A stretch of DNA of 35,546 nt from a virus (Duplodnaviria; Heunggongvirae; Uroviricota; Caudoviricetes), in IMG/VR virus record IMGVR_UViG_2778261064_000019. The stretch is one strand, 5' to 3'. Below the pieces are notes generated by a model. The model worked only from the letters and a program-made list of their open reading frames with translations. It was not told the origin of the DNA and did no database searches. The first letter of the stretch is position 1. Each line of letters starts with the position of its first letter. The position numbers and the translations under genes were made by a program. Below, one piece after another: positions 2,857 through 32,557 of the stretch.

Positions 2857-5514
2857 TTAACGTTGAAAAACCCAACACTTCACCGTCGCCGGGCGGCGCG
2901 GTGCGGCTGGGTAACGGCGGTTAAATTCAGCGTTGATGCCGCTGTTAACCGTTCTGACTTCAATAAACTTGTGGGTACGGCTGGTTTTTAGCACTCGCTT
3001 CAAATCGCTGATCGGCGGGATCTGCTGGCGGCGCTCGGTAGCCAGTTGAATAAAGTGGTTAAGGTTAACGGCGATAAGCTGTTCATCGCGCGAGTGGTTG
3101 AGCTGTGGTTCGTCGTCGCCATCGAGGAAGTCGAAAATATCCCAGAACTCCTGCACCAGAGGATGGTCGGCGCTGATGGCCTGTTGGCGCTCCAGACTGA
3201 GGCGGATAAACATTTCTCTGGTCGCCTGTAGCTGCTCTTCCGTGACCGGAATAACCAGCGCCAGCGCGTCGAGCAGCGCCATAAGCTGGGCGTGGTTTTT
3301 AATGATGCGGATATGGCGAATATCTGGGTGGGAGTGAAGTTGCTGCTCGTATAGCGGGATCTGACGGTTAACGCACTCCAGCACGGCCTGTTCCGCCAGC
3401 GCTGCCTTCAGCATAAAGCCGGAAAGCTGTTCTACCGGCAGGCGTTCGAGCTGCTCGGCAGCGACCTTGGTCTGAGTATTCTGGCCGCTGCGGTCGGTGT
3501 ACAGGTGAATAATACGTTCCAGCACCGGGTTAGAGGCGCTAACATCGGCGTTTTGCGCAATCACAATCGCGCCCCGGAACGGCGGTTCATAGGTCTCGTT
3601 GCCGCTGTTACGCAGACCGCGAGAACGCACCGACCGCCCGTTATAGGCGGTTTTCAGCTCTTCCCAATCAAAGCCACGCTGCTTTGCCCCCTCCTGATTA
3701 CGGTCACCCTCGATCAGCACCACCGGCATATTTGCTACCTGCGCAAAGTTGCGCGCGCGGGCGGCCAGCGTTGATTTAGACGGATCGAAACCTTCATAGT
3801 CGCGTCGGCCCAACAGTTTTCAGAGGAACTCTATCAGCGTGGTTTTACCGCTGCCGGGTTCGCCAACGATTTCCAGAAATGGAAAGCTCTTGTGCTTGTC
3901 GCGGATCTGTTCGGCAAACATCGTCCCAAACCAGTACGCCAGCGCCACAAACCCCTTTGCGCCAAACGCCTGCCAGAGTAGCTGGGGCCACTGGCTGTCC
4001 ATCTGTTTTAAATTGTCGTTCAGCGTCAGGCTGACCGACTGGTTCAGGCTTTTAAGGCTAAGTTTGCCCATGTCGAAGAAGTCTTCTTCGTTGAGTGTGT
4101 ACAGCCGACCATCGCGAACGGCCAGATCGTTGAACACGTAAGCGCGGTATTCTTTGCTGTAGCCGATAAAATCAGTGGTCTGGACAGTTTTGATTTTGGG
4201 AAGCTGCTTGAGCAGCAACTTATCTAACTGCTGACTGGTGCCGGTGAAGATGCCGCCCTGCGCGATATGCAGCAGGCGCTTTTTGAATTCTGAGCCGCTG
4301 GAAAGTTGGGAGCCGGTGAAGGTGTTTTTTATCGGTGGAGTGTCGTCGGGGAAGTTAATGCGAAAGTAATACCAGCTTTCGTCGGTAATGGTGTTGGCCT
4401 GATAGTAGAGGGTGGTCGGGTAGCAGTTGGCTATCTCAACAACGGCGGCTGACTCCTGTAGCGCTTTATGTTTGGCTTCTTCTTCGTCCAGCTCCTCTTT
4501 GCCGTTATACATCACGTTATCAAAGGCACGCATATAACGGTCAATATCCAGCTTGAACCAGTACAGGCGGCTGTCGAACTCGAAGTGAAACTCTTTGCGT
4601 TCGGTACGCTCATGCATCAGTAATGCTTTGGCATTCGGATTGGGAGCGATCAACAGTGAACCGTAGTAACGATATTTTTTAATCAGATCCGGGTTTAGCC
4701 GATCGCGCTGGTGCAAATCGTTCCAGTCCAGCTTGGTGCGGGAATAGGGCGTTTGTGCGGCGGTGGAAAGCCAGCCGTCGTCGCGGCTGCGTTTTACCCA
4801 GCGGCGGGTGTAATTCATGCCCGCTTTGTCGTTATCCAGCGCCCAGACCAGTAAAGGACGCTTTTTATCCACGAACAGCGCGGCCAGTTGGCTTAACGCC
4901 TGCGCCGGATAGTTGTTACAGGTCATCAGGGAAACGGCGGCAATGCCGTGGTGGTGCAGGGCGATAGCGTCAAAAATGCCCTCAACCAGCCAGATCTCCT
5001 GCTGTTCTTCCAGCTTAAGCGTTGGCAATTGCCACCATAGCCCGCTGTAAGCGCCGTGAAAATTGGCTTTGCGATCGCCGAAACGCTGTGGGCGGTCAAC
5101 GATCCGCTCCCACCACACGCCGTCAGCCAGCGGGAAACGCACAGTGGCCGAGCCGAGATCGCGCCGTGCGTCATAGTAGTTCTCTTGAGCGTAACAGTTA
5201 CGGAGCAGCGAAAGGTCAAAGCCGCGCATCTCGCGCAGGTAGGCATCGGCGGCGGCCTGTGGGTTTTCCGGGGTTGGGGGATATCTGTCTGACCAGCTTT
5301 CAAATAGATCCGGGTACACCTCTTTGATATGGATTTCGGCATTGCATTTATTCAGGCGACCGCAGCGCAGTACCCACGGGCTGATGGCGTAGGTGTACAG
5401 CTCTTTTTTCTGGCAGTCCGGGCAGACGCCCTGCCGCAGCCAGTCGCCCTGTTCTTTAAAGGAAAAATCGGCTAGCAGTCGCCGCGTAATTTCCTGATGA
5501 AGTTGTGGTTGCAT
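2857..5514 (-). pseudogene. P4 alpha-like primase-helicase interrupted by an in-frame TGA (fragments 3820..5514 and 2857..3813)
   Basis: The two ORFs are in the same frame, separated by a single TGA at 3820..3822 (translation ...GEPGSGKTTLIEFL*KLLGRRDYEGF...). N-terminal Cys-rich zinc-binding motifs (CPDCQKK, CGRLNKC) and a Toprim-like segment (LVEGIFDAIALHHHG); Walker A (GEPGSGKTT) sits just before the stop, and the helicase region continues after it. Confidence 0.6.
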
Positions 5515-5602: not shown

Positions 5603-5833
5603 TTACGCGATTTTCTGCTTTTGCAGAAATTGCCCGCGTGTGGATAGCGGTATGTGTATCTTAGGATTCGGGCAACCGCTGGGTACTACCGTTCCCATCA
5701 CGGTCTCCATCGCGATAAATGAAAACGAACAGTTAACGTTCTTGCACTGGTAATAGAGCTTACGTACCAGCGGTGACATATATTCGCTGCTGCGAATTAT
5801 CGCCTTACCGTCGCAGTGTGGGCATTTCATCAT
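5603..5833 (-). CDS. ogr: Ogr/Delta-family zinc-finger late-gene transcriptional activator
   Basis: MMKCPHCDGKAIIRSSE...YYQCKNVNCSFSF matches the Cys4 motif of P2 Ogr. Start set at ATG 5833 (AGGAG 7 nt upstream) rather than the longer ORF start at 5851. Monomer size (76 aa) is Ogr-like, not the duplicated P4 Delta. Confidence 0.85.
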   Translation of the reverse strand: MMKCPHCDGKAIIRSSEYMSPLVRKLYYQCKNVNCSFSFIAMETVMGTVVPSGCPNPKIHIPLSTRGQFLQKQKIA

Positions 5834-6156
5834 GTCCGATCTCCTTACCACTTTTAACTAACTGAAACACTAACGCTTTTCGTTAACGGACTGACGAAAT
5901 AGTGTGATGCCGTTCAAAAAAATGATTCTTGCCATGCTGGACATCGAACGGTTCTGCTCCAGCGCTAATGCTTACAGTTCCGCGATTTCAGCGGGGAGCA
6001 GACGCATTGCCACCGGTTTGTTCGACATCACCCCGCGGGGTGCTCGTGAGCGTAAGACGTTCTCATTTGTTTTCATGGTGGTATATTGTGGTTATTAACA
6101 TTACACAATCTATAATTCCCTCAATTGAGTGAATTGTCAATGGTAATTATATCCAA
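5834..6156. promoter_or_regulatory. Divergent intergenic control region between ogr (minus) and the XRE gene (plus)
   Basis: 323-bp non-coding gap between divergently transcribed genes. Contains a 14-bp perfect palindrome CACCCCGCGGGGTG (6029..6042), palindrome TCAATTGA (6121..6128), TATAAT (6111..6116) and TTGTCA (6135..6140). Promoter assignment is not resolved. Confidence 0.35.
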
Positions 6157-6495
6157 ATGAAAGAATTTGGCATCCGTTTGAAGGAAGAACGTATCCGACT
6201 TGGCCTTGATCAAGACGGCTTTGGACAACTTGGGGGCGTGAAGAAAAACGCACAAAGTAACTATGAGAATGGACTGCGCAAGCCGGACAGTGACTATCTT
6301 GCTGGCATAGCGGCAGCGGGAGTTGATGTTCTGTATGTTCTAACAGGCAACCGCACGCCTGTGGCTACGTTGTCCAGTAAAGAGAGTGTGTTGGTGGAGA
6401 ACTATCGTTCTGCTACGCCAGAACACCAGTCCACCCTTGACACGGTTAGCGCTGCGCTTGCGCAACCGGGAGTAGGGAAAGCAGCTAAGGGATAA
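6157..6495 (+). CDS. XRE-family helix-turn-helix regulator (candidate prophage repressor or cargo regulator)
   Basis: 112-aa ORF; N-terminal HTH pattern (IRLKEERIRLGLDQDGFGQLGGVKKNAQSNYENGLRKP) is typical of Cro/CI-type regulators. Divergent from the ogr-primase string, directly upstream of the AT-rich operon. Confidence 0.7.
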   Translation: MKEFGIRLKEERIRLGLDQDGFGQLGGVKKNAQSNYENGLRKPDSDYLAGIAAAGVDVLYVLTGNRTPVATLSSKESVLVENYRSATPEHQSTLDTVSAALAQPGVGKAAKG

Positions 6496-6535
6496 CGAGT
6501 AGAATGAATTTGGTTATTGTCTGTATGGAGGCAAA

Positions 6536-7108
6536 ATGAAGTTGAATAATCTGGTTGCTCTTTACAGGAACATGACAGAGCAAAAATTGGATAGGGTTAA
6601 ATTCCCATACAGACACAATAATTTACATTTTGATGTATTTTTCTTTATTGATGGAAAACCGTTTGAGCTTCTTTTCGGAGCATTAGGCGCTAATCTTTGC
6701 TTTCGTCTAAAAGTCGAGAAGGGATTCGTCATAAATCCTAATCTGGGAAGTGAGACTTATAAAGAATTATGCAAGGCGCTAGGTTTGAAATATGACCCTG
6801 CCAATCCATTTAGAACAAGTAAGTTTTTTGAAGATTTTGATGGGAAAATCCCTACATCGGTTACTGTTAAGAATAAGGCAAAATATACTGATATTGCTGT
6901 GCATGTCAGGGATGTTGAAGAAGCAGACAGAATATATTTCTGTGGATGGAAAAACAACAATGAAGAAAAGAGTCATGTTACTGAAGATAATTTAAAGAAA
7001 ACGAAAGAGTTTTTAGGGTATCAGGCTTTTCTTGTTTGTAAGGAAAAGAATATTAGCAGTAGATGGACTGATTTAGAAAATAAAGCAAAAGATTTTTATT
7101 TACCATAG
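6536..7108 (+). CDS. Hypothetical protein, AT-rich cargo operon gene 1
   Basis: 190-aa ORF with GGAGG-like RBS before the ATG. Strongly AT-biased codon usage unlike the flanking phage genes. No family recognised. Confidence 0.6.
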   Translation: MKLNNLVALYRNMTEQKLDRVKFPYRHNNLHFDVFFFIDGKPFELLFGALGANLCFRLKVEKGFVINPNLGSETYKELCKALGLKYDPANPFRTSKFFEDFDGKIPTSVTVKNKAKYTDIAVHVRDVEEADRIYFCGWKNNNEEKSHVTEDNLKKTKEFLGYQAFLVCKEKNISSRWTDLENKAKDFYLP

Positions 7109-7122
7109 GATTGTGAGGTTAT

Positions 7123-8271
7123 ATGTCTGATATTTCATTAGGGTGCGTGGTTGTTCATAGGTTGATAAAAGAGCAACATAAAGATTTCGATCACTCAAAA
7201 CCATATAGTCGCCGTGATACGGTTCTTGACCGAAATAATGAAATCGTAATTAAACTAGTGTCCAGTATAGCCGCATTGTATGGTAAAAAATCTAATAGCT
7301 CGCATTATGGTATATTTAATTTAGATGAAACACGCAGGGGGCCTTTTCCAGCGGAATTTGATAAATATCGGAATGATACATCCAAGAAGTTAGACGATGA
7401 ATTGTTTATAGGATTATCAAAAAATGTTATGCATCAGTTATATATTGAGGCAAAGGATCGACCTGCTGCATCAGGAGGATTACTTCTTTTTGCTGATTAT
7501 ATCAGTAAATCCGTGCGTTACTTTCTTATTGCAATGATTAAGCAAAAGGAAGGTATAGTTATTAGTGATAAATTAGAGCCAAAGGAGTTAGAGCATCTTG
7601 ATCTGGCAAAACTAAACCAGGCGGCACGAATAAACTATGATTTGTATGATAAATATATTTCCGCTGATGAGAATGAAAGACAGGATGTTAATTATTTAAG
7701 TTTTGTTAGTCCCAGTTCTAACCAGACAACTTCAGGGTATTTCATTACTGCCTTAGGTTGTGATAAAGGTAATACATCAACTAAAGCTACGAGTAATTTA
7801 ATTAATGAATCTTTTAACTTCTTCAGAAATCATCAAGAATTAAAGGATAATGCCCGTAAATTTAAAAATGAAATTATTGAGTATTTATTCGATTGTTCTG
7901 AAAATAACATTTCAGCTAAGCTCTCTGTTGTTAGTGAGATGGCGGCGAAGCATATGGTTAATTTAGAAGATGACATTAAAGATAAATTGTCAGAAGAATT
8001 ATATGCTCATTTGAATAGTGAAAGTATTCGTGTGCCTGTGGAATTTAGGGTAAGCAAATCAGTAGTTAAGAAAAACAGAAATATTAAATATACAAGTGAT
8101 AATGTTAATTTTGAGTTTAAATCTAGTTTACTAGGCAATACTCTTGATAATGAGATATGCTATAATAAGAAAACTGGACATTTAACTTTTACTCGGATTA
8201 CTCCTGAGAAAAAAAGTGAAATAGCTCAATTGCTTGATGAGTTAATAAAAGAAAGAAATAGCGAAAAATAA
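7123..8271 (+). CDS. YejK/NdpA-like (NA37 family) nucleoid-associated protein homologue, cargo gene 2
   Basis: 382-aa ORF, 14 bp after gene 1 with a GTGAGG RBS. Full-length pattern similarity to E. coli YejK as recalled: MSDISLGCVVVHRLIK vs MSLDINQIALHQLIK; ASGGLLLFADYISKSVRYFLIAMI vs [25 protein letters not shown]. Not verified by search. Confidence 0.6.
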   Translation: MSDISLGCVVVHRLIKEQHKDFDHSKPYSRRDTVLDRNNEIVIKLVSSIAALYGKKSNSSHYGIFNLDETRRGPFPAEFDKYRNDTSKKLDDELFIGLSKNVMHQLYIEAKDRPAASGGLLLFADYISKSVRYFLIAMIKQKEGIVISDKLEPKELEHLDLAKLNQAARINYDLYDKYISADENERQDVNYLSFVSPSSNQTTSGYFITALGCDKGNTSTKATSNLINESFNFFRNHQELKDNARKFKNEIIEYLFDCSENNISAKLSVVSEMAAKHMVNLEDDIKDKLSEELYAHLNSESIRVPVEFRVSKSVVKKNRNIKYTSDNVNFEFKSSLLGNTLDNEICYNKKTGHLTFTRITPEKKSEIAQLLDELIKERNSEK

Positions 8272-8282
8272 GGTTGCTTAAT

Positions 8283-8912
8283 ATGTCATGTTTTGAAACG
8301 GTTGTTGAGCTTTTCAGATATGTAGGGCGTCCTAAATTTGATGCTATTAATAATCGTTTTTCAGCAACTATTTCTTATGATGCTCATATATATGAACTCT
8401 TAGTTTCTTTGCAACCTCATACAGCGTGGGGAGAAATTGAAGAGATTGTCATTGATGATGTGGATATAGATGTTGATGATAGCCTTCCCGCTAAAGGAAC
8501 ATCAATAACACTGACAATCTCTATATCAACTGGAGCTAGTGAGTCATTTTTTATCGATATTAAAGATCTAATTCAAAAGTCTCCGATGTTAAATAGAGGT
8601 ATTTTAAGAAAGTCTTTTTACTTGGTTGAGGAAGATTTTTATTTTAATGAAGGAATGGTTGAGGGATTAGCAAAAATACCAGAACTATCTGTTTTAAAGA
8701 ATCTTTGTGATTTTATTTTATGTCTATCAAAAGTTGCACACTACAGCAATAGTAAAAGTGATGATGTATGCCATAAGTTAGTTTTCTTGAAAAATACTAA
8801 TGCTAAGTCATTACCTTTAATTATTGAAACTAATGTTGATTATTCACTTCTTTTAACAGGTATTAAGGATTTAAAAATCATCGAATCTTTTTCTGATGAA
8901 AAAAAGCTATAA
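8283..8912 (+). CDS. Hypothetical acidic protein, cargo gene 3
   Basis: ORF track starts at TTG 8274; the first ATG is at 8283, about 11 nt after the gene 2 stop. Contains acidic stretch EEIVIDDVDIDVDDS. No family recognised. Confidence 0.55.
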   Translation: MSCFETVVELFRYVGRPKFDAINNRFSATISYDAHIYELLVSLQPHTAWGEIEEIVIDDVDIDVDDSLPAKGTSITLTISISTGASESFFIDIKDLIQKSPMLNRGILRKSFYLVEEDFYFNEGMVEGLAKIPELSVLKNLCDFILCLSKVAHYSNSKSDDVCHKLVFLKNTNAKSLPLIIETNVDYSLLLTGIKDLKIIESFSDEKKL

Positions 8913-8956
8913 CGGATGATAATTATTTTGAGCGAAAAGGGATTTTCATTAATACG

Positions 8957-9538
8957 GTGGTCGATTTTCTTGAATCAATCGATGTAAAGAAACAGTTTCA
9001 TTTTTTATTCTGTGAGTGGGATGAATTTCTAAAACTATACCATAATAACCTCGGTGTATATCTTAGTGGTTTTTCATTTCATAAAGTAAGAAAGGAAGTG
9101 GCAGAGGCAGAAGCTAATTTAGCTGAGCGTTTTTCAAAAATAATGTCAGACATGATAGCTAAGCTTTTAGGTATTCCTGTTTCTTTGGTTGCTACTTTTG
9201 GCATGATAAAATTAAATACCCTGCCGGAAATGTTAGTGGTTTTTTTAGGTGTATTGCTCACGTCGATAATTATGTTTTTTATTGTAAGAAGTCAATACAC
9301 ACAGTTTAGGATGATTTGTGATGCTAAAGATATTATATTTTCCCCATTAGTGAAAAAATCTGTAGGTTATACAGAAGATTTGAAAAAATTAGTATGCAAT
9401 GCAAAGGATAATTTAGACAAAAATCAGGTCATGTTAAATCGTTACCTTCTTTTCTTTCAATGCTTATGCTGGATTCCGACAGCCTTAGGTGGTGGAATGA
9501 TCTTAATGGCTATTATGGTTCATTTAGGATTACTATAA
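8957..9538 (+). CDS. Predicted multi-pass membrane protein, cargo gene 4
   Basis: Hydrophobic segments IPVSLVATFGMI, MLVVFLGVLLTSIIMFFIV and YLLFFQCLCWIPTALGGGMILMAIMVHLGLL. Track start is a GTG at 8957, so the true start is uncertain. Stop codon overlaps the gpD stop convergently. Confidence 0.5.
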   Translation: MVDFLESIDVKKQFHFLFCEWDEFLKLYHNNLGVYLSGFSFHKVRKEVAEAEANLAERFSKIMSDMIAKLLGIPVSLVATFGMIKLNTLPEMLVVFLGVLLTSIIMFFIVRSQYTQFRMICDAKDIIFSPLVKKSVGYTEDLKKLVCNAKDNLDKNQVMLNRYLLFFQCLCWIPTALGGGMILMAIMVHLGLL

Positions 9539-14875: not shown

Positions 14876-16054
14876 TTACACGGTGGTGGCGATGGATTCA
14901 GCCAGATTGACCAGATAGCGGTCAGTGATGCGCTGGCGGAACATCAGGTTTTCCAGCGGCGGCACCGGGGTGTAGTCGTAGTCGATATACGCTTTACCCG
15001 CTTTCAGGATGTCCGGCGTGTTGGCGGCGGGATCGAACCATGCGGAGCCGTCGACGATGTAGCCGTTGCCTTTCAGTTCGCGGAATTTGGCGTTCACGCC
15101 TTCGATAATGTCGCGGAACAGAGAAGCGTGTTGCGGTTTATCTATCGCCCAGAAGTGGGCGTCGGCGATGGTATCCGCCAGCACCTGCGCGGTGCGGGTG
15201 TAGTTCTCAAAGGCAAACAGCGGATCGGTGCTGCAGGTGCGCGATCCCCAGAAGCGATAGCCGGCGTTGCAAATCAGCGTGGTGACGTCGTGGCTGTTGA
15301 GGTAATCCGAATCGGTGGCGGTGGACTGCAGATCCCAGAATACGCTGCGGGAAATGCCGGTCACGCCGTTGACGTCAACGTTGGACAGCGTTTTATGCCA
15401 GCCGGTTTCTTCATCAATTTTTGCACGCAGGCCCACGGCGCGGGCGGTGGCGTATAGGGTACGTTCGGCGGCAGCCTGTGTATCAAAGCCGACAAAATCC
15501 GGCCAGATAATCATCGCCTCTCGCGCACCTAGCTGATCGCGATACAGCACCGCCTCTTCTTTGGTCTGCGCGCCGAACGCCGACAGATAGCTGAAGGCGC
15601 GAAGCTGTTGTGAAATGCTGACCAGTTCGGTGGCGATGGGCAGAGAATCCAGCCCTGGTACCGCCAGAATGCGCGGTTTTATTTTCAGTTTGGTTTGCGA
15701 GTCCAGTAGCGCCTTCATGCCGGTGTATTTCCCGGCTGGCGTGCTGCCGCCGATGATATTGGCGGTGGTTTCGGCGGCGGAGTCACCTTCGGCTACGCGC
15801 ACGGCGACCACCACCGGCTGCGTCTGGTCGGCGATGGCATCCAGAGAGTGTGCCAGCGTACCGCTATCACCGGCTTTACCCAGCGCAGATCGCACGTCGG
15901 TTAACAGTACTGGGGTATCAAGGGGAAAGGTTTTTTCATCGGCATCTGAACCGGTACAGACAATGCCGATCACGGCAGTGGAAATGGTACGGATCGGGCG
16001 CACGCCTTCATTGATTTCAATAACGCGCGCGCCGTGGTGGTAGTCGGTTGCCAT
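14876..16054 (-). CDS. FI: Tail sheath protein (gpFI-like)
   Basis: Start set at ATG 16054 (MATDYHHGARVIEINEG..., GGAGG 8 nt upstream), matching the P2 FI N-terminus as recalled. The ORF track extends to 16141. Confidence 0.85.
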   Translation of the reverse strand: MATDYHHGARVIEINEGVRPIRTISTAVIGIVCTGSDADEKTFPLDTPVLLTDVRSALGKAGDSGTLAHSLDAIADQTQPVVVAVRVAEGDSAAETTANIIGGSTPAGKYTGMKALLDSQTKLKIKPRILAVPGLDSLPIATELVSISQQLRAFSYLSAFGAQTKEEAVLYRDQLGAREAMIIWPDFVGFDTQAAAERTLYATARAVGLRAKIDEETGWHKTLSNVDVNGVTGISRSVFWDLQSTATDSDYLNSHDVTTLICNAGYRFWGSRTCSTDPLFAFENYTRTAQVLADTIADAHFWAIDKPQHASLFRDIIEGVNAKFRELKGNGYIVDGSAWFDPAANTPDILKAGKAYIDYDYTPVPPLENLMFRQRITDRYLVNLAESIATTV

Positions 16055-16124
16055 GAGGCGAGCCTCCATCAGGTCAATAAATGACGATGGTGGCACAGAG
16101 CGAAAAGGGCGGTGACGGCTTCCA

Positions 16125-16147
16125 CTTGTAACCACTGGCACTACAAG
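16125..16147. promoter_or_regulatory. Dyad CTTGTA-N11-TACAAG upstream of FI (candidate Ogr-responsive late promoter element)
   Basis: Inverted repeat with imperfect extended arms (GGCTTCCACTTGTA / TACAAGCAGAAGCG, 16117..16155), 70-100 bp upstream of the FI start. Same half-sites and spacing at three other late-operon positions. Confidence 0.5.
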
Positions 16148-16159
16148 CAGAAGCGGTTT

Positions 16160-16918
16160 TTAATTCAGGATAATCAGTTCTGATGTGGTGCTGGCTGGCT
16201 TTCCACCTACGGTATAGCGAATCCCTACCGTTGAGAATGTCAGGCCGTGGAAGATATCGCGCATTTCCGGGATGTCGTTAACCGAGATAATCATCCGGCC
16301 CTGCATGGTGCGCGCCAGCTCTGCCATACGCTGGTACTGCTCAAGGCCAAATGGTACGCCGTAGCCTTCGGTTTTCCAGTATGGTGGGTCGCAGTAGAAC
16401 AGGGTATGCGGGCGGTCATAGCGGCGAATACAGTCGGCCCAGTCCAGATTTTCAATGCAGACGCGCGCCAGCCGCAGATGGGCGGCGGATAAATCCTCTT
16501 CCATACGCAGCAGGTTCAGGCGCGGCGGTGAGGTGGTGGCGGTACCGAACGTGCGACTTTCCACTTTGCCGCCGAATGCCAGCTTTTGCAGATAGTAGAA
16601 GCGCGCCGCGCGCTGGATATCGGTCAGCGTTTCTTCCGGGGTGATCTGGAGCCAGCGGTACATTTCGCGGCTGACCAGCGACCATTTAAACTGGCGGACA
16701 AACTCTTCTAAATGGTGCTGAAGTACGCGGTAGAGGTTGGTAACGTCACCGTTGATATCGTTCAGCACCTCGGCCTGTGCGGGCTGTTTCATAAAGAACA
16801 ACGCTGCCGCCCCGCAGAACGGTTCAACGTAGCAGCGGTGTTTGGGAAACAGTGGCAGAATGTGTTTTGCCAGCCTGCGCTTACCGCCGATCCACGGAAT
16901 AACGGGTAACGTATTCAA
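16160..16918 (-). CDS. DNA N6-adenine methyltransferase (Dam-like), second copy
   Basis: 252-aa ORF with YVEPFCGAAALF AdoMet motif and DPPY motif (FYCDPPYWKTEGYG). Sits between the tail fibre assembly gene and FI, the position of the P2 Z/fun locus. Confidence 0.8.
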   Translation of the reverse strand: MNTLPVIPWIGGKRRLAKHILPLFPKHRCYVEPFCGAAALFFMKQPAQAEVLNDINGDVTNLYRVLQHHLEEFVRQFKWSLVSREMYRWLQITPEETLTDIQRAARFYYLQKLAFGGKVESRTFGTATTSPPRLNLLRMEEDLSAAHLRLARVCIENLDWADCIRRYDRPHTLFYCDPPYWKTEGYGVPFGLEQYQRMAELARTMQGRMIISVNDIPEMRDIFHGLTFSTVGIRYTVGGKPASTTSELIILN

Positions 16919-21199: not shown

Positions 21200-21799
21200 T
21201 TACTGCGGCCCTCCGGTATTGCTACCCCCGCGCTCTACGCCTGTGTGCGTGTGGGTATGAACGGTGACGCCGTTGGAGGTAAAACTGCCGCCGCTGTGGG
21301 TGTAAGCACCTTTAAGCGTGCCGCCTTTTTTAACCGACAGCGTGGCGGTTTCCAGATGCTGGGTGCAGACGACGAGCGGTGTATCCAGCGTGACGCGGGT
21401 GCTGGCTTCGACCAGTGCGGTCTTGATGCCGGTAGCTTTTAACGTGCTGGAGCGCGGATCATATTCAATCACCGCACCATCGGGGTAAACGCTATGGTGA
21501 ACCTGTTCATCCAGCAGCGGGGCGGGGTTGGCGTCAGAGTAAATGGCCGGAAGTGCCACGGCGGTGGTTAACTCACCGCTTAAACAGAGCAGTAACACCT
21601 GTTCGCCTGTTGATGGCCGCCACCACGTCCGGGCATCACCGGCGCGTAGCGTCAGCCACGGTATCCAGTTGGTGGTCAGTTCACCAGTGTGAATGCGTAC
21701 TCGATCGCCCTTCACCTCTTCAACGGTGCCGGTACGGATCAGGTTTTCAATGCGCCGGTGCAGCTCGGCGAGGTTGGCTGGGTGGTTTGCGTCGCTCAT
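21200..21799 (-). CDS. V: Baseplate spike/assembly protein gpV-like
   Basis: 199-aa ORF, first gene of the V-W-J-I-H string, preceded by a dyad element. Confidence 0.8.
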   Translation of the reverse strand: MSDANHPANLAELHRRIENLIRTGTVEEVKGDRVRIHTGELTTNWIPWLTLRAGDARTWWRPSTGEQVLLLCLSGELTTAVALPAIYSDANPAPLLDEQVHHSVYPDGAVIEYDPRSSTLKATGIKTALVEASTRVTLDTPLVVCTQHLETATLSVKKGGTLKGAYTHSGGSFTSNGVTVHTHTHTGVERGGSNTGGPQ

Positions 21800-21843
21800 G
21801 CCGGAATCATTGGGATTCGCGGGCGAAGAGGGAAGGGCTAAGG

Positions 21844-21866
21844 CTTGTAGGATAATGGGCTACAAG
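21844..21866. promoter_or_regulatory. Dyad CTTGTA-N11-TACAAG upstream of gpV (candidate late promoter element)
   Basis: Inverted repeat CTTGTAG-N9-CTACAAG about 50-65 bp upstream of the gpV ATG. Confidence 0.5.
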
Positions 21867-21869
21867 TAA

Positions 21870-21891
21870 AACGCCCCTGAGTAGGGGCGTT
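21870..21891 (-). terminator. Possible hairpin terminator after hicB
   Basis: Stem AACGCCCCT / AGGGGCGTT with a 4-nt loop just downstream of the hicB stop on the minus strand. The following run is only weakly T-rich (TTACTTG). Confidence 0.35.
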
Positions 21892-21905: not shown

Positions 21906-22241
21906 TTAACCGTGCGCAGCCTTCATCAGTGTATCGTTAATCCACTGGTTAACGCTTTTACCGGAGACTTCTGCCGCAACGTTAATGGCAGAGTGAATTT
22001 CAGGTGGAATACGCAGGCTGATTTTTCCGCTGGCCGGACGCAACGGCTCCCGGCCCCGTTCCTCGCAGTAAGCCAGATAGTCGTCTACCGCCTCTTCAAA
22101 CGCTTTACGCAGATCGGCAACATTATCGGCATGAAAGCCAATGACATCCCGAATGCCTGCAACGTGACCAACAATGCATTGATCTTCATCGCTGTATTCA
22201 ATTTTTGCGGCATAGCCTCTATATGTCATGGTATTCATCAT
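21906..22241 (-). CDS. hicB: HicB-family antitoxin
   Basis: 111-aa ORF 4 bp-overlapped with the upstream hicA-like gene. C-terminal RHH-like segment (KISLRIPPEIHSAINVAAEVSGKSVNQWINDTL). Confidence 0.75.
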   Translation of the reverse strand: MMNTMTYRGYAAKIEYSDEDQCIVGHVAGIRDVIGFHADNVADLRKAFEEAVDDYLAYCEERGREPLRPASGKISLRIPPEIHSAINVAAEVSGKSVNQWINDTLMKAAHG

Positions 22242-22501
22242 GGTGTTACCCCTACAGCTTCAAGGAATGTTCTGGCATCGCGAACCTGATAGGCTTTCGC
22301 TTCTTTTTCCGGGTGTGGACGATGAAATGAAGCCACAACCTGATTAATTTCAAACCTGACGCGGGAACCGTTTCCTTCCGTAGCAATAGCCCCCAAAGCA
22401 ATAAATAAGGCTTCTATTTTTCGCCATTCCAGCGTGACAGGTGTTGGCGTAGAAAAAACAGCTTGTAAGGTTTTTTTATGTTTGGCGCTTAACGTATTCA
22501 T
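22238..22501 (-). CDS. hicA: HicA-family toxin (mRNA interferase)
   Basis: 87-aa ORF with GS..RF.......FHRPHP.KE pattern consistent with the HicA fold, in hicA-hicB order. Confidence 0.65.
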   Translation of the reverse strand: MNTLSAKHKKTLQAVFSTPTPVTLEWRKIEALFIALGAIATEGNGSRVRFEINQVVASFHRPHPEKEAKAYQVRDARTFLEAVGVTP

Positions 22502-24902: not shown

Positions 24903-25288
24903 TTGCGTCCCCTTAAAAAGTCGAGCAGTTGACCGGGGTTATCCAGTTGTCGGATGGCCCATAGCAGCGCCTTGACGGTAAGCGCCGATGAGAGCAGCGC
25001 CCCGATACCGGGGGAGACTTTTTCCGTCAGATGTTGCGGCAGATATCCGGCGACCAGTGCAGTGAACAGGTCGGCGGTCAGCAGGCCGATCACAAACGCC
25101 ACGCAGAAGAAAATGATGCGCAGGAACAGGCCGATCTCTTTTTGCGAAATCACCAGCAGCAGCGCGCCACACAATGCGCCGAGCACCACCGGAGCCTGTA
25201 GCGTCGGGAACAGCGTGGCAATGGAGAATGCGCTTACGGAAGCGGCGACGACGGTGCCGGTTACGGGTTCGTTCATAGTCAGTCCCAC
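24899..25288 (-). CDS. Holin-like membrane protein (gpY position)
   Basis: 129-aa ORF with several transmembrane segments, directly after gpX. Confidence 0.6.
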   Translation of the reverse strand: MGLTMNEPVTGTVVAASVSAFSIATLFPTLQAPVVLGALCGALLLVISQKEIGLFLRIIFFCVAFVIGLLTADLFTALVAGYLPQHLTEKVSPGIGALLSSALTVKALLWAIRQLDNPGQLLDFLRGRK

Positions 25289-25482
25289 AGGTTGATTCGT
25301 TGACGTTCGGCGGCGGGAGCCTGTTCAGGTACGTTCACCGCCGTACCGTGCGGCAGGCGCAGCGGCAGTTCGCATAGGCGCGGGTTGTCGCGGTAAAGCC
25401 GTTCGACAATCCCGGCAGTGCGCCCGAAGGTGCGCCAGCAGAGCTGGTCGAGCGTTTCGTTTTGCAGGCTATAGACAATCAT
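25279..25482 (-). CDS. X: Tail protein X (gpX-like)
   Basis: 67-aa ORF, the same size as P2 X, heading the lysis cassette. Confidence 0.75.
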   Translation of the reverse strand: MIVYSLQNETLDQLCWRTFGRTAGIVERLYRDNPRLCELPLRLPHGTAVNVPEQAPAAERQRINLWD

Positions 25483-25554
25483 GGTGTTTCCCGCGCGGCG
25501 TCAGGTGATGCGGGGATGGTGGCACAGGGGCGGGAAGTGAAGGGAAGGCTTCCG

Positions 25555-25577
25555 CTTGTAACTGAGGACAGTACAAG
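25555..25577. promoter_or_regulatory. Dyad CTTGTA-N11-TACAAG with 13-bp extended arms upstream of gpX
   Basis: Near-perfect inverted repeat GGCTTCCGCTTGTA-N11-TACAAGCGGAAGCG (25547..25585). The surrounding ~70 bp is near-identical to the element upstream of FI. Confidence 0.5.
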
Positions 25578-25596
25578 CGGAAGCGATTGGCGAGGG

Positions 25597-25917
25597 CTAT
25601 GCCTCGTCGCTGTCGGTATTGATGATTTTCAGTTCAGCGGACTTCTGGAGCTGGATCAGCGCCGGGATCAGAAGCGCGGTAGCCGACAGGCCGTGCCCTA
25701 ACTGGCACAGGCTTTCAGCGGAGAATTCCAGCACGTTGCTGTCGGCAAAGGAGACGAAGGTTTTACCCAGAAAATGCAGGCCGTGACATAGCCCGGCATA
25801 GCACTCTTCGCTGCTGTTGGCCAGTTGCAGAGTATCGTCGGCGTTCAGGTGTGAAATATCCAGCTTGCGGATCGCGTCCGCCAGTTCAGAGGACAGAATA
25901 TTGGTTTCAGGCACCAT
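25597..25917 (-). CDS. Hypothetical protein
   Basis: 106-aa ORF, last of three tightly coupled small ORFs between the Doc module and gpX. No family recognised. Confidence 0.4.
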   Translation of the reverse strand: MVPETNILSSELADAIRKLDISHLNADDTLQLANSSEECYAGLCHGLHFLGKTFVSFADSNVLEFSAESLCQLGHGLSATALLIPALIQLQKSAELKIINTDSDEA

Positions 25918-26083
25918 GGCGCACCTCCAGCGGTTTGCAGGAGACGAACACCAGCGGGAAACCCGCCAGCAGGCCGCGAGCCTCTGTCTCTGTTGTCGCC
26001 AGTACGGATACCAGACGCAGTGGCTGGATCTCGCGCAGCAGGCGGTTGGAACGGGCGTTCAGGAAGGTGTAGAGCTTAGGCAT
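25910..26083 (-). CDS. Hypothetical small protein (57 aa)
   Basis: Not in the ORF track (below 60 aa). ATG at 26081..26083 preceded by GGAGGTGAA; translates MPKLYTFLNARSNRLLREIQPLRLVSVLATTETEARGLLAGFPLVFVSCKPLEVRHGA; stop overlaps the next ATG. Confidence 0.3.
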
Positions 26084-26315
26084 GGTTCACCTCCTCTACC
26101 GGGGTGCTACGTGGGGGATTGAACGACTGAGCGATAACGCTCAGTGCCTGCTTACCTTCGGGATGCGCAAGACGGTAGTAAGTTAACAGGACTTGCTCCT
26201 GTGGGCTGAGATCGTCCCACGTGAGAGTTGTGTTACTATTAGCGGTAGCCATAGCATTACCTCGATTAATGTTGTGGTTAGATGCCTTGGCAGTGTTCGC
26301 GCACTGTCGGGGCAT
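26076..26315 (-). CDS. Hypothetical protein
   Basis: 79-aa ORF (possibly starting at internal Met, MATANSNTTL...). First of the three coupled small ORFs. Confidence 0.35.
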   Translation of the reverse strand: MPRQCANTAKASNHNINRGNAMATANSNTTLTWDDLSPQEQVLLTYYRLAHPEGKQALSVIAQSFNPPRSTPVEEVNHA

Positions 26316-26394
26316 TGTTATTTATGTCATGTGATAGTAATGTGTCATCACACAGTACTACATTAACCTGAGTGTGATTTAGGTGTCAATACAC

Positions 26395-26562
26395 ATGAAT
26401 GAAAGAAGAGGAAATCCTCCGTTTCAGTTTCGACTCGATCCTGAACTGAGAAACGCGATGGAAGAAGCTAAAAAGCAAGATGGTGATGAATCACTGGCTG
26501 CGTGGATTAAGCGAATTATCAGAAAAGAGCTTCAGTCACGGGGTATAGAACCAAAAGATTAG
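26395..26562 (+). CDS. Arc/MetJ-type ribbon-helix-helix DNA-binding protein
   Basis: 55-aa ORF not in the track. FQFRLDPELRNAMEEAKKQDGDESLAAWIKRIIRKEL follows the Arc-like beta-strand/helix pattern. Inverted repeat TGTGAT-N10-ATCACA (26331..26352) lies upstream. Confidence 0.55.
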   Translation: MNERRGNPPFQFRLDPELRNAMEEAKKQDGDESLAAWIKRIIRKELQSRGIEPKD

Positions 26563-26608
26563 CAGATAGGTATATACTTTGAATAAAGAGTATTAGAGGT
26601 AAAAAATA

Positions 26609-26797
26609 ATGGCGAAGAATAGCAGTCCTGCCAGCCGATACGGTATCAAGGTCGTAAAAAGAGACAGTATGAGCGGGCAGTTTGTACCCGTCGAAATGAA
26701 GCTGGACGGCCCGGAAGGTGAGCGTGTGATTAAAAAGTCGGCAGAGCGTATTTATGCCAGACACAACAAAGTCATTAAGGCGCTGGCTAACCGATGA
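26609..26797 (+). CDS. Putative antitoxin partner of Doc (family unassigned)
   Basis: 62-aa ORF whose stop overlaps the doc ATG (ATGA), the classic coupled toxin-antitoxin arrangement. Sequence does not resemble Phd as recalled. Confidence 0.45.
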   Translation: MAKNSSPASRYGIKVVKRDSMSGQFVPVEMKLDGPEGERVIKKSAERIYARHNKVIKALANR

Positions 26798-27171
26798 TTG
26801 ATGCACATTTGGTGATTGGAATTCACGACTTTATTCTTGCTCATGAGCCGGGATTGGTTGGTTATCAGGATGCTGGCCGGGTCGAGGCAACACTGGCACG
26901 GGTGGATAACCGTATTCTGTATGAGCAGATGAATGATATTTTCCAGATCGCCGCATCTTATGCGGTTGCCATCGCCAGAGGGCACGTTTTTGCTGATGCC
27001 AACAAGCGAACGGCACTGGTGACGGCGTTGACATACCTTGATATGCAGGGTGTGAACCTCAAGCGAACACAAAAGCTGGAAGATATTATGGTGGATGTGG
27101 CTGAGGGAACGCTAAATCTGGATGATTTAGCCGATATTTTCTATACCCTTAGTGATGTAAATGCTTCCTGA
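26794..27171 (+). CDS. doc: Doc (death-on-curing) / Fic-family toxin
   Basis: 125-aa ORF with the Fic/Doc active-site motif HVFADANKRTAL. Confidence 0.8.
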   Translation: MIDAHLVIGIHDFILAHEPGLVGYQDAGRVEATLARVDNRILYEQMNDIFQIAASYAVAIARGHVFADANKRTALVTALTYLDMQGVNLKRTQKLEDIMVDVAEGTLNLDDLADIFYTLSDVNAS

Positions 27172-27176
27172 CGTTA

Positions 27177-27201
27177 CAGCCCGACAGATCGGGCTGTTTT
27201 T
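27177..27201 (+). terminator. Rho-independent terminator after doc
   Basis: 8-bp stem CAGCCCGA / TCGGGCTG with a 4-nt loop, followed by TTTTT. Confidence 0.6.
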
Positions 27202-27203
27202 AA

Positions 27204-27440
27204 TTATGCCGCCTCAATACCCGCGTTGGTTAACATATAGTGGCCCCAGTGGTTTTTTTTCAGGTAACCGGCCAGTTCCATCTGCGTCACAATAAATTCA
27301 GCGTTAACCATTTCTATACCTGCGTAGTCGGCCAGATCGCGCAGCGGCCATGTGCTGCGAACGCCGACGCTAACTATGGTGTCTCTGATGCGGCGAGCGG
27401 TATCGGTCATTGGGCGGGTTCTGGCTGCCTGAATAGTCAT
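27204..27440 (-). CDS. Hypothetical protein
   Basis: 78-aa ORF downstream of gpL on the minus strand. No family recognised. Confidence 0.4.
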   Translation of the reverse strand: MTIQAARTRPMTDTARRIRDTIVSVGVRSTWPLRDLADYAGIEMVNAEFIVTQMELAGYLKKNHWGHYMLTNAGIEAA

Positions 27441-30617: not shown

Positions 30618-30689
30618 AACGTTCAGTCCCGGCGTTGGCTAAATAAGCGAATGGTCGGGTAGTCCTCCGCTATCAGGCAACGGGCTTCG

Positions 30690-30712
30690 CTTGTAATCAT
30701 CCGGGTTACAAG
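30690..30712. promoter_or_regulatory. Dyad CTTGTA-N11-TACAAG in the O/P divergent intergenic region
   Basis: Inverted repeat at the centre of the 155-bp gap between the divergent O and P genes. Confidence 0.5.
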
Positions 30713-30772
30713 CGGCATTGCTACGCGCAGACAGCGGCTTGTTTACGCTGACGGCAGAAACGAGAGGACGTT

Positions 30773-32557
30773 ATGCCGCCAGACATCGAAAAACATCTGC
30801 TTGCCCTTCAGGACGAAGATCCACGCCGTAAAGCCCGCTATCTGTACTGGCAGGGTTTTCGCATTGCGCGGATCGCTGAACTATTGGGGGTGAAAGTTAC
30901 CACGCTGCATAGCTGGAAGCGGCGCGATGGCTGGGACGAATCCGCCCCGCTGGAGCGGGTGACGGCGGTGACCGAAGCGCGGCTGATCCAGCTCACGGTG
31001 AAGGAAAATAAGGAGGGAAAGGATTTTAAGGAGATCGACCTGCTCTGGCGGCAGATGGAGCGCGGGGCAAGGGTTGAACGCTATCAGCAGGGGGGCAATG
31101 AGGTCGACCTGAACCCTGCTCTTGCGAAGCGTAACGCCGGGCCGCGCAGACAGCCGGAAACCAACCATATCAGCGAGGAGCAGGCGGAGAAGCTGAAACA
31201 GTTATTTCTGGACGGACTGTATCCGCACCAGAAACACTGGTACCGCGCCGGGCTGGAACACCGTATCCGCGATATCAACAAGTCGCGCCAGATTGGGGCG
31301 ACGATGTTCTTCGGGCGGGAAGGATTTATGGATGCGGTGGAGAGCGGGCGCAACCAGATCTTTCTCTCGGCCTCCAAAGCGCAGGCGCACCAGTTCCGCC
31401 AGTACATTGTCGATTTTGCTCGTGAGGCGGATGTTGAGCTGAAGGGCGAAGTCATTCACTTGCCGCATAATGATAGCCGGATGTATTTTCTCGGCACCAA
31501 TGCCCGCACCGCCCAGACCTATCATGGCAACCTGTATCTGGATGAATACTTCTGGATACACCGCTTTTTGGAACTGCGCCGTAACGCGGCGGGGATGGCC
31601 AGCCAGAAACGCTGGCGGCAGACCTACTTTTCCACACCGTCCAGCATTACCCACGAAGCCTATAAGTTCTGGACAGGGCAACTGTTCAACAAGGGCAGGC
31701 CGAAGAGCGAACAGATTCGACTGGATATCAGCCATCGGGCGCTGGCGGCGGGGCGTCTGTGTGAAGACGGCCAGTGGCGGCAAATCGTCACCGTTGAGGA
31801 TGCCATCAATCAGGGTTATGACCTGTTCGACCTTGAGCAACTCAGGCTGGAGAACTCGCCGGAAGAGTTCGCCAACCTGTTTATGTGCCAGTTTATCGAC
31901 GATACCGCATCGGTATTCCCACTAAGCATGTTGCAGGGTTGCATGGTCGATAGCTGGGAAGTCTGGGACGACTACAAGCCGTTTGCCCTGCGTCCGCTCG
32001 GCGAACGCTCGGTGTGGGTGGGGTACGATCCCGCATTAAGCGGTGACAGCGCCGGGTGCGTGATGGTCGCGCCGCCGGTCATTGAGGGCGGCAAGTTTCG
32101 GGTAATTGAAAAGCACCAGTGGCACGGGATGGACTTCGCGGCGCAGGCGGAAAATATCCGCAAAATTACCGAGCGCTATAACGTGACTTACATCGGTATT
32201 GACGTGACCGGCATCGGCCACGGCGTGCATCAACTGGTGAAACAGTTCTTCCCGGCAGTGCAGGCATTCTCTTATTCCCCAGAAGTGAAACAGCGTCTGG
32301 TGCTGAAAACGCTGGACGTTGTCCGTAAACGCCGACTGGAGTTTGACGCCGGATGGACGGATCTGGCGCAGGCGTTTATGGCAATTCGCAAAACCCTGAC
32401 TCCGTCCGGGCGTCAGGTGACCTTCGAGGCCAGCCGTTCGGAAGAAGTCTCCCACGCGGATCTGGCATGGGCGTGTATGCACGCCATTATCAATGAACCA
32501 CTGGAAAGCTCCGGCGGCGCGAACAGCGGGCGGGGCTTAATTAAGGTGTACGGATGA
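30773..32557 (+). CDS. P: Terminase large (ATPase) subunit gpP-like
   Basis: 594-aa ORF, size and divergent position as P2 P. Confidence 0.9.
   Translation: MPPDIEKHLLALQDEDPRRKARYLYWQGFRIARIAELLGVKVTTLHSWKRRDGWDESAPLERVTAVTEARLIQLTVKENKEGKDFKEIDLLWRQMERGARVERYQQGGNEVDLNPALAKRNAGPRRQPETNHISEEQAEKLKQLFLDGLYPHQKHWYRAGLEHRIRDINKSRQIGATMFFGREGFMDAVESGRNQIFLSASKAQAHQFRQYIVDFAREADVELKGEVIHLPHNDSRMYFLGTNARTAQTYHGNLYLDEYFWIHRFLELRRNAAGMASQKRWRQTYFSTPSSITHEAYKFWTGQLFNKGRPKSEQIRLDISHRALAAGRLCEDGQWRQIVTVEDAINQGYDLFDLEQLRLENSPEEFANLFMCQFIDDTASVFPLSMLQGCMVDSWEVWDDYKPFALRPLGERSVWVGYDPALSGDSAGCVMVAPPVIEGGKFRVIEKHQWHGMDFAAQAENIRKITERYNVTYIGIDVTGIGHGVHQLVKQFFPAVQAFSYSPEVKQRLVLKTLDVVRKRRLEFDAGWTDLAQAFMAIRKTLTPSGRQVTFEASRSEEVSHADLAWACMHAIINEPLESSGGANSGRGLIKVYG

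Follow-up and report, generated by a model that had tools for sequence, protein, structure and literature searches.

What does a perfect inverted repeat do in four identical copies around the late genes of a prophage, and why does one copy stand at a junction where the coliphage P2 has no promoter? The question is raised by a 35,546-nucleotide stretch of viral DNA (IMG/VR virus record IMGVR_UViG_2778261064_000019; this whole stretch is called the window below), in which the dyad CTTGTA-N11-TACAAG occurs before FI, V and X and between the divergent genes O and P. It was originally predicted, from the letters alone, that these dyads are Ogr-type elements placed where P2 late promoters are expected. 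The present comparison makes it highly probable that the four dyads are the activator boxes of Ogr-type late promoters in a P2-like prophage. The copy before X is the least canonical of the four and is treated separately.

The prophage and its presumed activator gene

Judged by its gene content and order, the window is a P2-like prophage (Peduoviridae). Genes were identified with Pfam and PHROGs as well as by tblastn against P2; the tblastn hits keep the order of P2 at 36-62% identity, and the Pfam families agree. The late set is of P2 type, with Q and P on one side and O, N, M, L, X, lysis, R, S, V, W, J, I, H, FI, FII, E, T, U and D on the other. The genes from O to D are read from the minus strand, from 30617 down to 9533, and P and Q from the plus strand, beginning at 30773. 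The left end of the window carries genes for an integrase, an AlpA-like protein, a Dam methyltransferase and a Toprim primase. DNA searches of a phage collection found no close sequenced phage; the best similarity there is about 73% identity over FI, to Ralstonia phages, and the X region has no match. Among species-representative genomes the closest is that of Edwardsiella ictaluri, with a gpV 92% identical, and an identical gpX is recorded in 782 blocks of public assemblies.

An Ogr/Delta-family zinc-finger protein (Table 1) presumably binds the four boxes. Its match to PF04606 (E = 1e-19) is above the curated cut-off, it is 42% identical to P2 Ogr, and its cysteines follow the pattern CX2CX22CX4C, a spacing that no other real ORF has in the six frames of the window. 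No solved structure of a relative was found. Unlike in P2, where ogr comes directly after D, the gene is not adjacent to D but leads the leftward primase operon, where a small ORF precedes it, so the late activator may be expressed together with early genes.

Between D and ogr there is an AT-rich island of plus-strand genes (window 6100-9530; 30-41% GC, against about 57% elsewhere) that encodes an HTH_3 protein, a DUF6037 protein, an NA37-family nucleoid-associated protein and two ORFs without a family. The island looks like accessory cargo, possibly of a defensive kind. A sigma-70-like sequence, TTGACA-N17-AATTAT (about 6138-6110), is found near ogr and faces the HTH gene.

Table 1. Candidate late promoter elements and associated features in the window
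Feature	Position	Strand or orientation	Basis or remark
Ogr/Delta-family zinc-finger gene, presumed binder of the four boxes	5603..5833	-	PF04606; 76 aa from ATG at 5833
FI, tail sheath gene, opens F operon	14876..16055	-	Pfam Phage_sheath_1, Phage_sheath_1C, Gp18_domIII_N; 62% identity to P2 FI
PF -10-like hexamer CACCAT, preceded by TGC (extended -10 type)	16087..16092	-	33 nt after dyad
PF candidate activator box	16125..16147	faces FI on -	exact match; imperfect extended arms to 16119-16153
V, baseplate spike gene, opens V operon	21200..21799	-	PHROGs baseplate assembly protein; Pfam Phage_base_V on identical locus
PV -10-like hexamer AATGAT	21806..21811	-	33 nt after dyad
PV candidate activator box	21844..21866	faces V on -	exact match
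Intrinsic terminator closing the S/HicAB unit	21870..21891	-	9-pair stem, T-rich tail reaching into PV dyad
X (Phage_tail_X / baseplate hub)	25279..25482	-	PHROGs phrog_46; Pfam Phage_tail_X
PX -10-like hexamer CACCAT, preceded by TGC (extended -10 type)	25516..25521	-	34 nt after dyad
PX candidate activator box, non-canonical	25555..25577	faces X on -	perfect 12-bp arms CTTCCGCTTGTA/TACAAGCGGAAG, 25549-25583
Variable cargo between L and PX box	25597..27440	both	ORF calls; Fic/DOC Pfam hit
Terminator of Doc module	27176-27197	T-run on + only	terminator scan
PO -10-like hexamer GACCAT	30651..30656	-	34 nt after dyad, O side
Shared PO/PP candidate activator box	30690..30712	divergent O (-) and P (+)	exact match
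PP -10-like hexamer TACGCT	30744..30749	+	32 nt after dyad, P side

Occurrence of the dyad in the window

An exact pattern search of the 35.5-kb window returns the four dyads of Table 1, at the positions first proposed for them, and no others, and all four are intergenic. In 100 dinucleotide-preserving shuffles the dyad appears 0 times, with 0 copies expected. When up to three mismatches are allowed, there are 8 hits in the window against a chance expectation of 9.3, and the four extra hits each carry exactly three mismatches. Since near-miss copies are absent and the total is below chance, the perfect dyads form a discrete class rather than the top of a continuum. The looser pattern TGT-N13-ACA has 13 matches in the window, and only the four dyads have full arms. 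Each box faces late genes, namely FI, V, X and the divergent O/P pair; measured from the dyad centre, the ATGs of FI, V, X, O and P lie at 81, 56, 84, 84 and 72 nt, respectively.

Position of the boxes relative to -10-like hexamers

At all five candidate promoters a -10-like hexamer (xAxxAT or TAxxxT) begins 32-34 nt past the 23-bp dyad, although these assignments are weak matches (xAxxAT) picked by position. The end of the hexamer lies 48.5-50.5 bp from the dyad centre in five of five promoters, whose start sites are estimates. With a start 6-7 nt past the hexamer, the dyad centre would fall at about -55 to -57. The start of PF would then be at about 16080, with a leader of about 25 nt, and that of PX at about 25509, with a leader of about 27 nt. 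At PV the A of the V start codon is the seventh nucleotide past the hexamer, so the V mRNA would be leaderless.

The arrangement is also oriented. PF, PV and PX have the hexamer on the gene side only, and a search for a second promoter on their other side found no -10-like hexamer at the required distance; the O/P dyad has one on both sides. None of the sigma-70 consensus promoters returned by a generic scan coincides with the five positions.

Comparison with P2, 186 and related prophages

The geometry of the P2 and 186 promoters was taken from their annotated RefSeq records; the promoters compared are the Ogr-dependent PP, PO, PV and PF of P2 and the B-dependent p12, pV, p32 and pJ of 186. 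In the P2 record a single activator site (3057-3087) is given for both pO (start 3127) and pP (start 3016), pV starts on the first base of the V CDS, and the pF site has a 26-nt leader. In the 186 record one B-protein site is given for the divergent pV/p12 promoters and another for pJ. The PF box of the window corresponds in position to the activator sites of P2 pF and 186 pJ. Three of the dyads coincide with annotated P2/186 activator sites, and these three boxes reproduce the experimentally derived layout, including the shared divergent site and the geometry of a leaderless V. In common with P2 and 186, the window has an upstream TGT...ACA dyad at these three positions, one site for the two head promoters that diverge, a predicted start of V transcription on the V start codon, a putative weak -10 with no -35, and a phage-encoded activator of the CX2CX22CX4C type. 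However, the boxes of P2 and 186 are degenerate and mostly N12 (TGT-N12-CCA at pO and pF), whereas those of the window have perfect arms of 6 bp to 12 bp and N13, and the resemblance to the experimentally studied coliphage boxes is therefore loose at the level of the letters. In addition, L and X are contiguous in P2 and 186 with no promoter between them, whereas the window has a fourth box before X.

A similar element is also found in P4, whose Delta/Ogr-dependent late promoters Psid and PLL rely on an activator of this family and have an upstream dyad of this type. P4 is a satellite, whereas the element in the window is a helper-type prophage itself, in which satellite genes (sid, psu) were not seen.

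The original prediction had set the 13-nt distance between TGT and ACA, which is confirmed here, against the 12 nt of P2. This distance is not a peculiarity of the window, as it is the common form outside the coliphages among 80 related prophages. N13 boxes have been reported as Ogr motifs in phiRSA1 and phiRSY1 (TGTTGT-N13-ACAACA; PMC5694545), and the late promoters of Smp131 have TGT-N12-ACA (PMC3931495). A literature search for N13 spacing or Ogr binding found nothing beyond phiRSY1.

The 80 related loci were fetched from species-representative genomes by gpV similarity, with 10 kb on each side. They contain 128 TGTA-N11-TACA cores against about 24 expected, and none of the 128 lies inside a mapped gene. 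Nearly all (117 of 128) are placed as in the window, 40 upstream of O (between P and O), 42 upstream of V, where they are equivalent to the PV box, and 35 upstream of FI. The hosts of the prophages are Pseudomonas, Halomonadaceae, Azotobacter, Variovorax, Lysobacter and Edwardsiella, and phiCTX has three perfect cores and no more, one each at P/O, V and FI. The window shares the core, and an identical distance to the -10-like hexamer, with prophages of Pseudomonas, Halomonadaceae, Azotobacter and Variovorax. It differs in the outer arm bases, which read CTTGTA in the window and CTGTAG, TTGTAA or TGTTGT elsewhere. Similarly, phiRSA1, phiRSY1 and phiCTX-like Pseudomonas prophages have the 13-nt TGT/ACA spacing at the same three positions; unlike the window, they have no box between L and X. 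Perfect palindromes, N13 spacing and a shared divergent site are ordinary for P2-like phages. The element belongs to a class that is already well known, with three ordinary boxes and a fourth that probably adds a lineage-specific promoter before X.

The same loci give the distance from box to -10 more sharply. Of 159 related promoters, 149 have an NAnnnT sequence that begins exactly 33 nt past the dyad, and 7 have it at 34 nt; among 77 V and FI sites, 72 have it towards the gene and 2 have it on the opposite side. Such rigid, oriented spacing is predicted by an activator box coupled to a -10, and not by a hairpin or a chance repeat. The rule of 33 nt from box to -10, which extends across many genera, is new, and its novelty is modest.

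Two observations on individual prophages can be added. In many Pseudomonas and Halomonadaceae loci (L015, L020, L024 and L027 among them) the three boxes of a single prophage have almost the same 11-bp spacer (for example GCGCGCCCCGC or ACGCCCGCTTT), while the four spacers of the window are mutually unrelated. The likeness within prophages is a hint that recognition by some Ogr homologues extends beyond the arms. Furthermore, a locus from Pseudomonas mangiferae (L078) has a perfect GCTTGTA-N11-TACAAGC box at 6479-6501, 83 nt upstream of its L homologue, and homologues of O, N, M, P and Q were not detected upstream of that box. Possibly this locus is a rearranged or tail-only (tailocin-like) element in which a late promoter of its own precedes L.

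Proposed mechanism of late activation

The Ogr-type nature of the element is backed by the Ogr/Delta gene, the P2/186 positions, the 80 prophages and the oriented hexamers, and the following scheme is built on these comparisons. The Ogr homologue would bind each CTTGTA-N11-TACAAG, presumably as a dimer with one subunit on each arm. From there, about 55-57 bp upstream of the start, it would recruit the host sigma-70 RNA polymerase to promoters that offer only a weak -10 (xAxxAT or TAxxxT) and no -35. P2 Ogr contacts RNA polymerase at its alpha subunit, and a similar polymerase contact is presumed here. PF would drive FI through D, and PV would drive V through the tail-fibre genes from a leaderless mRNA. 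The O/P box, midway between its two genes, would serve both divergent promoters. PX would give an activator-dependent start of its own to X, the lysis genes, R and S; the genes of this proposed unit are X, two holins, a muramidase, spanins, R and S. On this scheme four boxes would serve five promoters, compared to three boxes and four promoters in canonical P2, 186 and phiCTX.

A fourth box at the L-X junction

The box before X had been singled out as non-canonical, and it is rare indeed: P2, 186, phiCTX and 60 of 61 other loci have no dyad there. The two genes are contiguous in phiCTX as they are in P2 and 186, and the gap between L and X is 18 nt or less in 57 of the 61 loci in which both could be mapped. 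Of the other four, three have about 200 nt between the genes and no dyad, and one, the E. ictaluri prophage (L001), has 110 nt and the dyad. All five IMG/VR contigs related by gpL (L083-L087; 79-94% identity) also have the box, and the clade with PX consists of the window, the E. ictaluri prophage and these five contigs. The arms in the relatives read CTTCCGCTTGTA/TACAAGCGGAAG, with one variant reading TACAGG. A wider IMG/VR scan for long-armed dyads of the PX type returned the same relatives and one other P2-like O/P site; the AT-rich contigs that it also returned were dismissed as bidirectional terminator hairpins with no P2-like genes nearby.

In an alignment of seven relatives the PX arms and the -10 region (GTGCCA..ATC; TGnCAYYAT) are invariant, while the 11-bp spacer, like the stretch from box to -10 (-45 to -15), diverges in the more distant members L086 and L087. 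Conservation of arms and -10 across a diverging spacer is what a functional promoter with its protein-binding site would be expected to show, and on this pattern PX is probably an active promoter. We think it unlikely that PX is an inactive relic, for example a duplicate of the PF region left at a recombination junction, with X to S transcribed by read-through from PO as in P2. It is true that PX is closest to PF, with which it has in common the flanks CGCTTCYG and GGAAGCC and CTGTGCCACCATC, and the two are identical at 45 of 68 non-arm positions compared to 35-40 for other pairs, a small margin. Moreover, there is no terminator between L and the dyad in the cargo-free relatives, so read-through from PO would reach X and the need for PX is not obvious. 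However, the relic reading does not sit well with arms and a -10 that stay fixed while the DNA between them changes, nor with a geometry that matches the functional class exactly. Reliance on read-through alone is also less plausible in the window, where the cargo places a Doc operon on the opposite strand between L and X. A terminator that would block PO read-through before X was also sought in the window, and only the hairpin of the Doc module was found, with its T-run on the plus strand only.

The cargo itself consists of three small ORFs on the minus strand and, on the plus strand, an opposite-facing module (26383-27197) of an RHH-like protein (59 aa), a putative antitoxin (62 aa) and a Fic/Doc toxin (125 aa). 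A promoter-like site, TTGACA-N17-TTAATG, with inverted repeats is present in the divergent region 26316-26420. L085-L087 and the window have differing cargo, always upstream of the PX box, and in L001, L083 and L084 no gene separates L from the box, the gap between L and X being about 110 nt. It had been suggested that the dyad before X might be linked to these accessory insertions; since the same dyad is present in the three cargo-free relatives, the insertion did not deliver it. The relation may be the reverse, with a pre-existing independent X promoter making the L-X junction tolerant of insertions.

Taken as a whole, the proposal that PX is a functional Ogr-dependent fifth late promoter, that it arose in one small clade, that it uncouples X, lysis, R and S from the head operon and opens the L-X junction as a cargo site, and that its 12-bp arms perhaps also form an RNA hairpin delimiting cargo transcripts, is one that we hold evenly balanced between acceptance and rejection. 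Such a fifth late promoter before X, specific to one lineage and preceded by variable cargo, would be modestly new.

Other readings of the dyads

The boxes could in principle be promoter-associated operators for a regulator other than the Ogr homologue, from another prophage or from the host, and we regard this as very unlikely. It would draw on the 12-nt rather than 13-nt spacing of the P2 consensus and on the displacement of ogr from its P2 position to a place beside the primase operon, with the AT-rich island between it and D. Against this, the positions match the annotated P2 Ogr and 186 B sites, the N13 boxes of phiRSY1 and phiRSA1 are published as Ogr motifs, the same core is found at three late promoters across dozens of P2-like prophages, and no other regulator adjoining the late genes was seen in the window.

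Slightly weaker still, and highly improbable, is the reading that the dyads are mainly RNA or DNA hairpins (transcript 3'-end, processing or terminator elements that close upstream units): PX and PF do have arms of 12-13 bp with predicted folds of -26.2 and -19.4 kcal/mol, directly behind same-strand genes without a canonical terminator (a106 for PX, the Dam methyltransferase for PF), but the arms of PV and PO/PP are only 6-8 bp (-7 and -11 kcal/mol), none of the four dyads is followed by a U-tract, and the fixed 33-nt distance to a gene-side -10-like hexamer speaks against a hairpin. When PX and PF were examined as rho-independent terminators, the hairpins were stable, their tails (CGGAAGCC and TGGAAGCC) had no U-run and the terminator scan was silent, whereas PV already has a separate canonical terminator immediately upstream of its box. 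The long arms of PX and PF, which would pair stably in any transcript that contains them, may have a secondary role of this kind. Furthermore, the O/P dyad lies between divergent genes, so that neither late operon would transcribe it, and it is the arm sequence YTGTA/TACAR itself, and not just its pairing, that is kept from Pseudomonas to Edwardsiella with a spacer fixed at 11 nt.

Implications

With Ogr-type late promoters as the preferred reading, the late transcription units of a widespread prophage can be annotated with confidence, as five promoters from four boxes. The perfect palindrome is an unusually clean operator for studying how Ogr-family zinc-finger activators read DNA. In addition, the rule of 33 nt after a 23-bp box could be used to locate late promoters in P2-like prophages and possibly in satellites. 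PX, if it acts as proposed, would be a small example of how an added promoter can open a site for cargo insertion in a compact phage operon.

Other features of the prophage and its relatives

Several observations outside the late promoters were made along the same stretch. The prophage has two D12-class (Dam-like) adenine methyltransferase genes, one in the early region (1442-2269) and one between the tail-fibre genes and FI (16160-16918), which is the Z/fun position of P2. The Toprim primase ORF (3820-5514, minus strand) terminates shortly past a Walker-A-like GEPGSGKT motif, and a 318-aa ORF without a Pfam match starts 6 nt beyond it (region 2857-5514, minus strand); together they are either a split primase-helicase or a frameshifted gene. 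A HicA/HicB toxin-antitoxin pair (21906-22501) occupies the S-V junction, the position of P2 orf30, with a good sigma-70-like promoter upstream (TTGAAA-16-TATCAT with TG, 22577-22550) and the terminator at 21891-21870 downstream. Finally, a relative with an identical gpX (L101) carries an IS605-family insertion, with OrfB/TnpB and a Y1 transposase, at 6641-8301 within its lysis cluster.
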